From the NCBI GenBank assembly GCA_951406725.2, contig OX597826.1, positions 45,570,001 to 45,634,000 of the forward strand: a stretch of DNA of 64,000 nucleotides. Reading direction: 5' to 3'. The position numbers and the translations under genes were made by a program. This document shows positions 672 through 49,030 of this stretch, piece by piece. Below the pieces are notes generated by a model. It saw only the letters and a list, made by a program, of their open reading frames with translations. It did no database searches and was not told the DNA's origin. The DNA comes from Octopus vulgaris. Taxonomy: Eukaryota. Each line of letters opens with the position of its first letter. Within the stretch, counting starts at the first letter, position 1.

Positions 672-872
672 GACCGGGTGTGTACCGTTAGCGATTTTTT
701 TTTCCTCTGTCTTCCTTTCTCTGGATCTTTCCTTCTCCTATGTTTCCGACGAAGAGCTCCGCTCGAAACGTTAAACCTTCCTTCTTCCCTTCCTGAGTGT
801 CCAATAATACTATATTTGTTCCACGTCCTCGCGTTGTTGTGTTTTCTCTTTGTGTTTTCATGTTTGGATTAA
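672..872 (+). mobile_element. Penelope-like pseudo-LTR repeat (family P1) carrying a minimal hammerhead
   Basis: ~200 bp repeated at 4625-4815 and 48840-49030, each beside a microsatellite; hammerhead core inside. Confidence 0.7.
742..776 (+). ncRNA. Minimal type I hammerhead ribozyme motif (U4C variant)
   Basis: gttt-CCGACGA-A-GAGC tcc GCTC-GAAAC-GTT/aaac; stem I gttt/aaac, stem II GAGC/GCTC, palindromic ACGT stem III. Confidence 0.6.
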
Positions 873-1652
873 CTTTATATATATATATATATATATATTA
901 ATCCGCTTTAGAAAGGTGGGGGTGGAGTAAGTGAGAGGTGGAGTGAGAGAGAGAGAAAGATAGAGAGAGGGCGAGTGAAGAAAGAAGAGAGGAAGAAGTA
1001 GAGAAAGGTGGTTAATATTAATACGCTTTGGCCAAATGGTCACGTGGTCAGCTGAAGCGAAAGACGAAGAACGAAAGAAAAAGACGACGAGAGAAAAGGA
1101 AAGATAGAGAGAGAGGAGTGTTAACGATATGCGGTGGGTGGGGAAGGAATACTTATTACGTGATTAAAAAGTTAACTGATAGGAAAGATAGATAGAGAGA
1201 AATGGAGAGAGAGAGAGAGGGGTAGGTAGCAGTGGTGGTGTGTGGATAGTGAAAAGTAGTTTCATTTATTGAACCAATTCTTTTTATATAGGGAGCCTCG
1301 TTTAATGCATGCTCGCTTAAGGAATTGATATTTGTTTATAAGGGACAATTTAGCCGAAACCCTGGATTCACAAGAAACACGATTGCAAGCTACTCGAGAA
1401 AGGTTGTACAGATATAGATCACGGGTCAGAGAGGAACAGCGAGAAAATATAATAAAAAGACGGAGACGCGAGGAAATTAATGTAGACGAATGTGAAGAAT
1501 ACTTAAAGAATGCTAAACTATGAATGCTATGAAAATGCAATTCATCCTTTTTTTCTTAAATAGATCCTCTTAATTTTTTCCATCCCGTGGAATTTCCATG
1601 GTCCCACTAGTATACATACATACACACACATACACACATATACATACATATA

Positions 1653-2995
1653 TAAAAGAAAATAGAAAGATAATTTATAAATTAGTATGTATTAATTAAG
1701 AAATTGACAAACATCCTTTACAGCTGTTTCAATTGAAGACCTTAAGAAAATTAATTAATAAAAATTTAAAATTGTTTGAAAGTCGAATCTCGTCTGGCGT
1801 AGTTTAAGATATACAAAATAAGCGTTAAATTCCTGCATGTTGGCTAAACGGCTGCAAACCGTTAACTGATGAATTTATATATAGAGAACATAGTATAAAA
1901 CATGGTATAGACCCAAGAAAGGTGAGTAAGGTTGTGTATATTAGAGTTGTAAAGTAATAATAGATCAATATATTCATCTAGAGTGTTTAGTATTAAAAAA
2001 ACTGAAGTAGATATATTGTATAAATGTCATATATTGTGATATTATGTCCATCCATATTAAATCAATAGGAAATTAGTTTTTTAACCCTTTCGATATTTAT
2101 AATAAGTAATAGATTGCCTGGAATGTCTTTTACCATAATTAGATATTAATAATAACTATACACACGTGAATTAAACTCTACATACTAATTTTTTATTGAT
2201 TTAATATGGATGGACATAATATCATAATATATGACATTTATACCAATATATCTACTTGAGGTTTCTTATACTAATCACTCTTGATGATAGGCGTAGGAGT
2301 GGCTGTGTAGTAAGTATCTTGCTTACCAACCACATGGTTCCGGGTTCAGTCCCACTGCGTGGCACCTTGGGCAAGTATCTTCTACTATAGCCTTGGGCCG
2401 ACCGAAGCCTTGTGAGTGGATTTGGTAGACGGAAACTGAAAGAAGCCCGTCGTATATATGTATATATACATGTGTGTATGTTTGCGTGTCTGTGTCTGTC
2501 CACCCAACATCACTTGACAACCGCTGCTGGTGTGTTTACGTCCCCGTCACTCAGCGGTTCGGCGAAAGGGACCGATAGAATAAGTAATAGGCTTACAAAG
2601 AATAAGTCCTGGGGTCGATTTTCACGACTAAAAGGCGGTGCTCCAGCATGGCCATAGTCAAATGACTGAAACAAGTAAAAGAGAGTATTCTTACTTTACA
2701 ACTCCAATATACACAAACTTATTCCCCTTTCTAAGGTCTATACCATGTTTTATACTATATTATTTATGTATAAATTTCATCAGTTAACGGTTTGCAGCCG
2801 TTTACTCAACATGCAGGAATTGAACACCTATTTTATATATCTTAAACTACGTCTGAGGAGATTCGACTTCAAATAATTTTCAATTTTAGTAATTATTTTT
2901 CTTAAGGTCTTGAACTGAAACAGCTGTAAGGGTTGTTTGACACTTTTTTAATTAGTAACTAATAATTCATTAATTATCTCTCTATTTTCTTATCT
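1653..2995. repeat. Long imperfect inverted repeat (foldback), right arm interrupted by SINE A
   Basis: 1653-2080 is the reverse complement of 2183-2288 plus 2687-2995 (e.g. aaacggctgcaaaccgttaactgatgaa / ttcatcagttaacggtttgcagccgttt). Confidence 0.85.
2290..2686 (+). mobile_element. SINE family A, full length
   Basis: tRNA-like head (tggctgtgtagtaag...ggttcagtccc), ccttgggcaagt segment, internal (TA)/(TG) tract, gtaaaaga tail. Confidence 0.9.
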
Positions 2996-3202
2996 TATTT
3001 TAATAAATAAATACATATAAACTACGGTAACTAACCAGTAATTTCATCGAATTTTGCTATCCCTCAATGAGGTTTGCAATCTTTATATATATATATATAT
3101 ATATATATATATATATATATATATATATATATATATATATATATAGTAGCGTATGCGTGTTTGTGTGATTGTAAATATAATATATATATATATATATATA
3201 TA

Positions 3203-46700: not shown

Positions 46701-47219
46701 CACAATATCTCAAAACTTCCTTCTCAGAAAATCAACAATTTATCAGCATTTATCAAGTATCTGTCACCTTTCCAAACACTCCATCTTTCTTTCGCACAAG
46801 TAGATATAGTATTAGATACCAAACACAAACTTTCACACTTTTTAACACATGTTCTTCCAACAGATAACATTAACAGCTCCCACCTGATTTCCAGGTTTTT
46901 TTTTCTGTAAACGACTCACCAACTTCCGTTCGTCTACTTATTCGATTGAATGTTCCGACGGAGAATTTTTAACAGATATAAAGCAACACAACAGAAAGGT
47001 CGTTTATTTCTAGATTGAGGAAAACTATGATGCTTACACGCTTCATACACAACCTCCGTACCTCTGAGCTGAAGAAATGAACTCTATATCTATTACAGCC
47101 CGCTTAGTCTTGATTCTTTCCCTTGTAAGCTAACATTTTCGTTTAAATACGAAAGAATACTGAATGAAAAGTTCCTGGCTTTGGGTAAAACAAAATACAA
47201 GAGGATCCTTTCTCTAATA

Positions 47220-47725
47220 CTTTTCCTCTCCCCTCCACCGTTCTCTAGCTGTCCGTCTCTCTTTCTCACTCTTCCTCTTCTCCTCTCTCGTTGCTCACAT
47301 GTGACCATCGGCCATCTTTCTTTTCGTAACTCGAGCTTCTTTCTTTCCTTTTGATCTGCCACACAGATCAGATGCATTCTTGACTGTCTCCTCTCCTATC
47401 TTTTCTCCTATCAAAGCTTGTTCCTCCAGCGGTCGCCACCTCACCTCGTTTTGGCTTAGTAGCCCTTACTGTTTATTTTCACTGTCCTGTTTTTGTTACC
47501 AGCTTTGACCCTTCGCAAATCCCAAATTTTATTTTGCTTTGCGGGAGCAAGTGTTTTCTTATCGTAATTGGGCGAAATGTGGGGTAGATAAACAGTCGAC
47601 AACTGCTGAAGGGTCGTTCTTTATGTTAATTTACTTGTTTTCCATTTGTTTTATTTTTTCGTTGTTCGCAAAAAAGTTCGTATTTCGTATTTCATGTTGT
47701 TTACGTTTTATGACGTCCTTTACCC
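47220..47725 (+). repeat. Pyrimidine-rich repeat, possibly a Penelope-like 3' region
   Basis: cacatgtgaccatcggcc resembles the reverse complement of 1030-1046; ends in (TA)n. Confidence 0.3.
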
Positions 47726-48839
47726 ATATATGCATGTGTATATATATATATATATAGTATATATATGTATATATATATATACTTATATATATATATATAT
47801 ATATATATATATATAGTATGTGCATATATGTATGTATATATGCATATATATATATATATATATATATATATATATTTATTTACATTACATTATATTATAT
47901 TATATATATATATATATATATATATTACATTACAATTTATTATATATATATATATATAAATATATATATATAAATAAATAATAAATTGTAATGTAAATAA
48001 TATATATATATATATATATGTATATATATATATATATAGTTTTACCAAGAATCTGTCACCTTTCCAAAGACTCCATATTTCTTTCGCACAAGTAGATATA
48101 GTATTAAATTCCCAACGCGAACTATCACACGGCATGGAATTTTGTCAGTGAACAGGTCGCGGTTTCAAAGCGACGAAAATATTTTGGGAAATTAAATTTA
48201 AATGTTGAAGTGAATCTACCGGTTTTTGTGTGTTTTTAAATGGCTTATAAACACCTTCCCCGCTGCAATTGTTTATATATATATATATATATATATATAT
48301 ACTCCGCGGGACCACTCTTCCATCTTCCCCTCCGCTGGAGTCCTTTTCCTAACCCCCCCCCTTTTTTTCGTTACACACACGCGCACACATATACACACAT
48401 TGCTTAAACATATACATCACTCTTACACACATTCAATCTACTCGCCACTAATACTACCACGACACTGGACACACACACACACTACTACTCAACACACGCT
48501 GGCACGCTACCTACGCCCCCACCCCTTCCCCTCCCTCCCTTCCTCCTTCCTCCCTTTTCTCACTACTGACCTTTGTCTGCTATGCTGCTGCTATGCTGAC
48601 CACCGTCTCGCCCTACCTCACACGCCTACACACAGACGCACACACTAACACATACATATATTTTTTGTTTTTTTACCTCGCCTCACACACACACATACAC
48701 ACACGCACACGCACACACTCACACATACACACACATCTGTTGCGTTACCAACCTTGTCTCCACTCTTTTGCCTTTAAAAACCCACTTTGCTCTTGTTATC
48801 GTAAACATCCGCCTTTCACCATGTGCTACTGCTAACACC

Positions 48840-49030
48840 AGCCGTTTTTTCTCTATCTCCGTTGCCCGCTCCGGGATCTTTCTTTCCTCTCTCTTCCTTC
48901 TTTATGTTTCCGACGAAGAGCTCCGCTCGAAACGTCATACCTCCCTGCTTCCATTTCCTGAGCGCCTATTAATAATAATACTGTAATTGTTCCCTTGTTG
49001 TTGTTTTTTTGTTTCCCGTTTGGATTAAAA
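48840..49030 (+). mobile_element. Penelope-like pseudo-LTR P1, third copy, hammerhead at 48906-48940
   Basis: gttt-CCGACGA-A-GAGC tcc GCTC-GAAAC-GTC/atac. Confidence 0.7.

Follow-up and report, generated by a model that had tools for sequence, protein, structure and literature searches.

Minimal hammerhead ribozymes in the pseudo-long terminal repeats (pLTRs) of metazoan Penelope-like elements (PLEs), solo and highly variable copies among them, were described in 2014 (Cervera and de la Pena, PMC4209133). According to the part of that report drawn on here, many animal genomes hold thousands of dispersed, variable motifs left by truncated PLEs, most motifs are solitary and likely derive from such truncated elements, and dimers cut weakly. 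PLEs account for 6.83% of the Octopus vulgaris genome, in 190 families, as given in the consulted text of PMC13282606. We analyzed a 64,000-nucleotide stretch of O. vulgaris DNA (assembly GCA_951406725.2, contig OX597826.1, positions 45,570,001 to 45,634,000, forward strand), called the window below. It contains four related repeats with a hammerhead-like motif. These repeats are quite probably 3'-terminal pLTR remnants of PLEs, inserted beside TA-type microsatellites.

The motif resembles the PLE hammerheads in several ways, judged from the same portion of the 2014 report. The core layout, the extra nucleotide after A9, the G10.1-C11.1 pair and the CG palindrome without loop III are alike, as are the short stem I, the U-rich flank and the occurrence mostly as solo, variable copies. 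The copies fit the published consensus, which consists of a U-rich 5' flank, CUGANGAH, G..C, GAAAN, a palindrome and UH (PMC4209133). Two differences were found. The 56 motifs printed in that report include no cephalopod sequence and neither the U4C nor the A6U change; by our own count, 53 read CUGA and 3 read UUGA. In addition, no copy in the window is linked to an open reading frame (ORF). The repeat units are as follows.

673..873, plus strand: copy 1, a T/C-rich unit of about 200 bp, likely a PLE 3' end (pLTR remnant); located by nhmmer, 3' end at 873.
4623..4811, plus strand: copy 2, a unit of about 190 bp that shares the TGTGACCG start with copy 1.
41750..41905, plus strand: copy 3, 156 bp, the most divergent subfamily (44-47% different outside the motif).
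48836..49029, plus strand: copy 4, a pLTR-like unit; outside the motif it diverges by 33-35% from copies 1 and 2.
48302..48835, plus strand: probable 5' extension of copy 4, putatively 3' untranslated region of the source element.

A profile built from these same four copies and run with nhmmer on the 64-kb window gave envelopes at 673-878, 4625-4816, 41738-41907 and 48838-49032, all with E values of 4e-29 or better. The next match had an E value of 2.4. A covariance model agreed with the profile, scoring the four copies at 68-101 bits and the next match at 17. Both methods therefore recover exactly the four sites that an earlier reading of the letters alone (the sequence-only reading) had listed. 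Between copies 1 and 2, 8 of the 172 aligned columns carry a substitution. Of the 106 ungapped columns outside the motif, 35-37 separate copy 4 from this pair and 47-50 separate copy 3 from the other copies. The tree has the shape (c1,c2),c4,c3, with all 8 informative columns uniting copies 1 and 2. Because copy 3, copy 4 and the pair of copies 1 and 2 differ so widely outside the motif, the copies are, on sequence divergence, three lineages rather than one tight family.

The repeats had been described as solo units of about 200 bp. This description probably fails for copy 4, whose insertion likely spans about 730 bp and starts at 48302 rather than near 48840. Its extension, positions 48302-48835, begins directly after (TA)14, and contains 40% C and 9% G; no other 534-nt segment of the two strands is as rich in C (median 17%). 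It has no homolog within the 64-kb window. All four copies lie on the plus strand, as claimed, but this bias is not significant (p = 0.125); an 11-copy short interspersed nuclear element (SINE)-like repeat in the window has 7 plus and 4 minus copies.

Each unit carries one motif. Nucleotides are numbered by the usual hammerhead convention.

742..776, plus strand: copy 1 motif; stem I of 4 bp, core CCGACGA (U4C), extra A, stem II of 4 bp, 3-nt loop, GAAACGT, H17 = U at 772.
4679..4713, plus strand: copy 2 motif, with H17 = U at 4709; nowhere else in the window is the published descriptor matched in full.
41787..41822, plus strand: copy 3 hammerhead-like motif; CTGTAGA (A6U), stem I without its first two pairs, loop ATAG, H17 = A at 41818.
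48906..48940, plus strand: copy 4 motif; CCGACGA (U4C), H17 = C at 48936, U.U mismatch at stem I pair 2.

Read part by part, the cores are CCGACGA (746), CTGACGA (4683), CTGTAGA (41791) and CCGACGA (48910). Stem II is GAGC/GCTC with 4 bp in all four copies and opens with G10.1-C11.1. The extra A between positions 9 and 10.1, the palindromic CG pair at 15.2-16.2 and GAAACGT are likewise present in 4/4. The loop is TCC in three copies and ATAG in one, and H17 is T, T, A and C in copies 1 to 4. The cores, loops, triplets, stem II and GAAACGTH are as the sequence-only reading gave them. That reading left out stem I, which forms all four pairs in copies 1 and 2, has a U.U at its second pair in copy 4 and lacks its first two pairs in copy 3. 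The hammerhead assignment stands as a minimal type I motif of the PLE kind, with stem I broken in two of the four copies.

The published descriptor specifies a stem II of 3-7 bp, a loop of 3-10 nt and a stem I of at least 3 bp (PMC4209133). We coded it from the supplement of that report and ran it on both strands of the window. The strict form found one site, copy 2 at 4679-4713. Copy 1 was added when one core mismatch was allowed, and copies 3 and 4 matched only with stem I dropped. Beside the core, stem I has 4 bp in copies 1 and 2 and does not reach 3 bp in copy 4, with its mismatch, or in copy 3. The core CUGANGA...GAAANNUH is complete in copy 2 and has one mismatch in copies 1 and 4 (U4C) and in copy 3 (A6U). 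Because copy 2 fits the whole descriptor and also has the extra nucleotide, G10.1-C11.1 and the 15.2-16.2 palindrome, its identification as a minimal type I hammerhead of the PLE kind is supported. The copy 3 motif is likely inactive. Its A6U change and broken stem I may represent either decay after insertion or a subfamily state, both of which are compatible with a single copy. By our count, 25 of the 56 printed motifs have C at H17 and 24 have U, whereas A is found in 6 and G in one (PMC4209133). Since the published triplets are already spread over all four nucleotides, triplet variation is ordinary in the PLE class, and so is loop variation.

A chance resemblance within some unrelated T/C-rich repeat was also considered. 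In its favor, the motif is short and Rfam assigns it to no hammerhead family: the comparison that the sequence-only reading had proposed gave no match at the gathering threshold in the whole window, and around copies 2 and 3 no such family was found at E values up to 10 either. The matches near copy 2 were microsatellite-driven noise of the microRNA type, and nothing was found near copy 3. Against chance, the strict descriptor had 0 matches in 200 local dinucleotide shuffles, the three PLE-marking features outside the descriptor are all present, and the motif is the most conserved stretch of the repeat unit. With one mismatch allowed, 2 matches were reached in 2 of 200 shuffles; without stem I, 6 sites were observed, compared with a shuffle mean of 0.8 and a maximum of 3. 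A chance origin is already largely refuted and is very improbable.

Another hammerhead-like site was examined and rejected. Located at 4940-4971 on the plus strand, it lies 130 nt past copy 2 and has a perfect first box and a 5-bp hairpin, but G12 is missing and H17 is G. It is a single copy, within chance level. At 17150-17260 there is a back-to-back inverted pair of similar CTGATGAT...GAAACT stretches around 17205-17214; it has no stem II and fails the descriptor.

The conservation pattern supports constraint on the motif in the source elements. From C3 to U16.1, 21 of 26 ungapped columns are invariant, compared with 49 of 120 outside (p = 4e-4). Copies 1 and 4 are identical at 26/26 motif columns and at 88/140 columns elsewhere (p = 4e-5). 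Variation occurs at 4 of 5 free positions and at 2 of 22 constrained positions (p = 0.004); with stem I counted among the constrained positions, it occurs at 6 of 30 (p = 0.017). C3-G8, G5, A9, G12-A15.1 and U16.1 are kept in all four copies, and H17 is never G.

The core CCGA (U4C) of copies 1 and 4 was probably inherited in the lineages that gave rise to copies 1, 2 and 4, and copy 2 would have acquired CUGA by a CpG transition. The sequence-only reading had suggested a subfamily variant instead of decay, and this suggestion is favored by the identity of copies 1 and 4 across the motif and by the CpG-loss likelihood. On the tree, the position 4 states C, T, C and T cost two steps either way. 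The inherited path takes one U4C change in the source lineage and one CpG transition in copy 2, and the decay path takes two independent T-to-C changes. Eight SINE copies of the window were used to obtain the local CpG-loss rate. CpG transitions were found at 13/126 sites and A/T transitions at 13/632. The resulting likelihood ratio is about 240:1 for the CpG-loss path over two T-to-C changes, before any prior; it borrows its rates from another repeat family and ignores the prior rarity of U4C, which tempers the inherited reading. The other CpG difference between copies 1 and 2, at position 798, is likewise a C-to-T loss. The seemingly intact core of copy 2 may therefore be the derived one. 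A reversion of copy 2 in an active source is indistinguishable from decay after its insertion.

The competing explanation for the core is that CCGA arose in copies 1 and 4 after insertion, from a canonical CUGA source. It agrees with the invariance of U4 in 56/56 printed PLE motifs (PMC4209133) and with the strong loss of in vitro activity caused by U4C, and parsimony does not separate the two paths. Copy 4, however, has no other change relative to copy 1 in the 26 motif columns, and local T-to-C change is about 2% per site, compared with about 10% for CpG loss. Together with the likelihood ratio, this makes independent decay rather unlikely. A viroid carrying U4C stays infectious in spite of that lowered activity (Ambros and Flores 1998, in the account given by PMC3088659). 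We did not find U4C in a PLE in the portions of the literature consulted; Lunse 2017, Repbase, Dfam and preprint supplements may hold cases.

The units lie in microsatellite-rich surroundings, with the following features.

621..672: (TG)26, on the 5' side of copy 1, which has a (TA)n run past its 3' end.
4821..4912: (ATAG)23 array 3' of copy 2.
41661..41749: (TA)44 array 5' of copy 3.
41906-41949: (CT)22 past the 3' end of copy 3, followed by (TA)16.
48274..48301: (TA)14, immediately before the probable 5' end of copy 4.
About 49032: (TA)n run past the 3' end of copy 4.

The 3' ends of copies 1 to 4 lie 101, 102, 87 and 93 nt past H17 and 3, 10, 1 and 3 nt from a perfect microsatellite. All four are thus within 10 nt of an array, compared with 2.9% of non-array positions, in line with the placement beside microsatellites noted earlier from the letters. 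Such a bias is known for Neptune and Naiad PLEs, in the part of the report used here (PMC8557442). The array at the 3' end could also stem from the element's own tail, not from insertion bias. The 5' ends vary among the three lineages: that of copy 3, after (TA)44, lies 41 nt upstream of C3, and the most distant one lies about 610 nt away. Around copy 2, (TATC)n at 4465-4567 and (ATAG)n at 4821-4912 are reverse complements, and for that reason they do not look like a single array split by insertion. Right after copy 4, in the TA run, an element at 49050-50299 has inverted ends (32/35 identical) and resembles a Tc1/mariner transposon. An end similar to that of this element precedes copy 3 at 41600-41657, matching 38131-38187.

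Unit size and ends also bear on a second origin, in which the units are monomers of a non-autonomous pLTR-derived element, either a non-LTR retrozyme or SINE-like, mobilized on its own by PLE proteins. The units of 156-200 bp are near the retrozyme size range, and copies 1 and 2 share both ends. Animal non-LTR retrozymes are short non-coding hammerhead units related to pLTRs (PMC7229834), and dispersed monomers of them exist (bioRxiv 10.64898/2026.07.22.740005), as far as the consulted parts of both reports go. They are defined, however, by circular RNAs and by units in tandem that mostly bear canonical type I hammerheads, and no tandem unit or tandem arrangement was found within the window. 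The 2020 report gives retrozymes hammerheads of the canonical type I and links minimal hammerheads to PLEs (PMC7229834, part consulted), and the differing 5' ends of the three lineages speak against a fixed monomer. We consider this origin quite improbable.

We searched the window for coding sequence of the source element and for relatives of the unit. A Pfam search of 449 distinct segments, from 536 high-complexity stop-free segments of at least 40 amino acids, found no RVT_1 and no GIY-YIG, though heavily decayed coding DNA could escape it. The segments left out were mostly SINE- or microsatellite-rich and were picked by eye. A six-frame motif scan of the window likewise found no GIY-YIG and no reverse transcriptase (RT) YxDD. 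Pfam matches were limited to Tc1/mariner, IS1595-like, zf-RVT and APE fragments and a few weak strays. The statement that no RT or GIY-YIG ORF lies nearby is borne out. A telomerase-like RT and GIY-YIG ORF joined to a pLTR, the mark of a PLE, is absent from the window, as expected of truncated remnants. The label pLTR consequently stands on resemblance to the PLE motifs, with no linked ORF. A tRNA scan of the window gave no match.

Candidate relatives and pairings were rejected in turn. A full protein scan with the unit translations gave one match, to an unrelated repeat protein with 31% identity summed over 11 stretches, which is spurious. Prokaryotic genomes contained no exact 21-mer match. 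A gapped-pattern scan of them, with a pattern that itself recovers 3 of the 4 copies (its gap range excludes copy 3), gave two matches. These are the same locus in two Desulfuromonadales metagenome-assembled genomes (L001:6001-6047 and L002:2828-2874); they have the stem II and GAAACGT part without a CUGANGA first core box, score 14 bits under the covariance model and are due to chance. Copies 1 and 2, 3,937 nt apart at a PLE-like spacing, were considered as the two pLTRs of one element. We rejected this because the interval holds a SINE, mariner pieces and microsatellites; despite a difference of only about 5% between the copies, neither RT nor GIY-YIG is found in it. A 20-mer of the repeat unit was not found in the literature.

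A number of points weigh against the PLE-remnant reading and the constraint on its hammerhead. The sample of four copies is very small. The membership of the source in PLEs is likely by resemblance, with no copy joined to RT or GIY-YIG, and two indexed searches of protein sets with the unit translations gave no match. The extension of copy 4 was judged by composition and TA boundaries alone. Copies 1 and 2 share their 5' start, which random truncation does not predict. U4C occurs in none of the 56 printed PLE motifs, a set found largely by a CUGANGA descriptor (PMC4209133). No stem covariation was seen, with 0/8 pairs of stems I and II changed on both sides in the four copies, and the broken stem I in two copies weakens the constraint test from p = 0.004 to 0.017. 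In low-complexity DNA the measured divergence of the flanks depends on the alignment, so the contrast between motif and flank is inflated. The stability of the monomer folds is unremarkable (z -1.8 to +0.2). For copies 1 and 2 the active dimer fold has -7.3 kcal/mol and the best dimer -24.7 kcal/mol, so that computed folds favor inactive pairings; the active dimer of copy 4 has only -0.9 kcal/mol. The folding model omits core contacts, and the copy 3 dimer figure, with no stem I imposed, is not comparable. A block outside the ribozyme is as conserved as the motif, being invariant at 9/10 positions.

790..799, 4731-4740, 41833-41842 and 48955-48964, plus strand: second conserved block, TTCCTGAG(C/T)G.

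This block lies downstream of the cleavage site, at a distance of 15-30 nt, and in every copy its GAGC could form pairs with the 3' strand of stem II. The predicted pairing probability is 0.82 in copy 2, 0.21 in copy 4 and 0.04 in copies 1 and 3. The sequence-only reading's constraint at the ribozyme level holds for the invariance of the motif columns and is qualified by the absent covariation, the broken stem I and the equally conserved block.

These observations raise a different function, in which the hammerhead-derived motif was kept as a protein-binding or switching RNA structure and not as a cutter. Alternative pairings, of the 5' GUUUC with GAAAC and of the downstream UGAGC with stem II, would then matter, and such pairings dominate the computed folds. 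Variation falls on the catalytic positions U4 and A6 and on stem I, and spares stem II, GAAACGU, the 5' TTTC and the downstream block. Insertion of PAc, a Poseidon element of Anolis carolinensis, is independent of cleavage (Frangieh et al. 2024, PMC11167929), and Naiads spread without canonical hammerheads (PMC8557442), in the parts of both reports drawn on. On the other hand, the core nucleotides from C3 to U16.1 listed above are all kept and H17 is never G, the downstream pairing is strong in one of four copies, and the U4C viroid hammerhead still works in vivo (PMC3088659, as far as consulted). A non-cutting role is accordingly unlikely in our judgment, and we keep a source hammerhead that could cut as the preferred reading.

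The following account of the PLE remnants builds on the observed motif, boundaries, flanks and conservation; PLE origin, priming site and dimer cleavage are its inferred parts. A PLE protein supplied from elsewhere would nick AT-rich repeat DNA. Reverse transcription would begin 3' of the hammerhead, at a fixed position about 90-100 nt away, and halt early, after about 150-200 nt in copies 1-3 and about 730 nt in copy 4. If the copies were reverse-transcribed, the template would have been uncleaved or re-ligated RNA, because the cleavage site lies within every copy. In the source elements, two motifs would pair through their ACGU palindromes to form stem III, with one core cutting the other's site. 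Cleavage there would occur only as a dimer, slowly, and would probably be protein-assisted. The scattered copies are probably passive fossils, and copy 3 has probably lost any activity. Copies 1 and 2 appear fully dimer-compatible in layout and lie 3.9 kb apart on one strand; the other copies are alone, with no partner.

PAc provides a precedent for several of these steps, within the portion of the report available (PMC11167929). Its reverse transcription starts 111-118 nt into the ORF and its hammerhead cut is at +26. By arithmetic, the gap between cut and priming is 85-92 nt, which matches the 87-102 nt found here. Uncleaved RNA is the main PAc template, targets are AT-rich, the ribozyme cuts only with protein, and insertion does not need cleavage.

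The window contains several other repeats. The SINE-like repeat, at 4995-5165 and ten more places, has 72-100% identity to the query copy among its 11 members, 7 on the plus and 4 on the minus strand. The 3' part of a long interspersed nuclear element (LINE), with zf-RVT and a restriction-like endonuclease region, lies at 11280-12333 on the plus strand, between (TAA)n arrays at 11007-11182 and 12548-12609. For its fragment 11887-12330, the two best of 267 protein matches are from Octopus bimaculoides (83% and 79% identical), consistent with an octopus host. We take this LINE to be Dong/R4-like, from its Pfam matches. A broken LINE 5' part at 56500-58570 on the minus strand has APE endonuclease pieces and a zinc-knuckle-like stretch upstream, and is presumably L1/Tx1-like, again with Pfam matches in mind. 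Transposase fragments found by Pfam (mariner, IS1595/Merlin-like, Tc1) lie at 3328-4118 (plus), 35524-35712 (minus), 43315-43602 (plus) and 53322-54220 (minus). A 184-bp unit is repeated 1.9 times at 62221-62571, with 90% identity.

Compared with individual PLE groups, the source is Neptune-like by resemblance. The closest printed motif is that of Neptune from Acropora digitifera, which has the same CUGACGAA core, a 4-bp stem II ending in GCUC and CGU after GAAA (PMC4209133). The CUGACGAA core is also present in three other printed motifs and is thus not diagnostic of Neptune (PMC4209133). Insertion by microsatellites is shared with the Neptune clade, a bias common to Naiads as well (PMC8557442, part consulted). 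Unlike the copies here, which have no ORF, the clade is defined by RT phylogeny and a CX2-5CxxC zinc-finger linker. Naiad PLEs of Octopus share the host genus and the (TA)n targets (Craig et al. 2021, PMC8557442). As far as the consulted part of that report shows, they have no canonical hammerheads, and none of the longer motifs of the unit occurs in the consulted supplement, so we rejected Octopus Naiads as the source. An octopus hammerhead was not found in the parts of the literature seen, PMC13282606 and PMC8967140 included; Lunse 2017, Repbase and Dfam may hold cases.

PAc is alike in the position of the hammerhead, about 85-92 nt upstream of the copying start, in its AT-rich targets and in insertions that span the cleavage site (PMC11167929, part used). 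In PAc the ORF begins inside the hammerhead, whereas here the sequence 3' of the motif is T-rich and has no protein match. The U4C viroid hammerhead carries the same core change, with in vitro activity much lower and activity in vivo enough (Ambros and Flores 1998, through the passage in PMC3088659). It is a canonical ribozyme with tertiary contacts in an RNA replicon, unlike the minimal motif here, which has no evident tertiary support.

A further proposal is tentative, and we think it doubtful. Octopus PLE lineages about one third diverged in the pLTR may keep a deliberately slowed hammerhead (U4C) as their normal state, with the downstream block that opposes stem II as an added off switch. 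If so, a weakened core would raise insertion yield, only uncleaved RNA being copyable across the cleavage site. Whether the PLE hammerhead is tuned down could then be tested naturally on the scale of a genome, and CUGANGA-based searches would miss this class by design and undercount such motifs.

Overall, the repeats belong to an ordinary class and add a likely cephalopod example not found in print. The fresh point is that U4C is likely the source state and the CUGA of copy 2 possibly a CpG reversion. The hammerhead may only ride along in PLEs, as suggested in the part of PMC8557442 drawn on, and PAc inserts without it. If U4C is the norm of the family, an attenuated yet tightly conserved core would allow the role of the hammerhead for PLEs to be tested.

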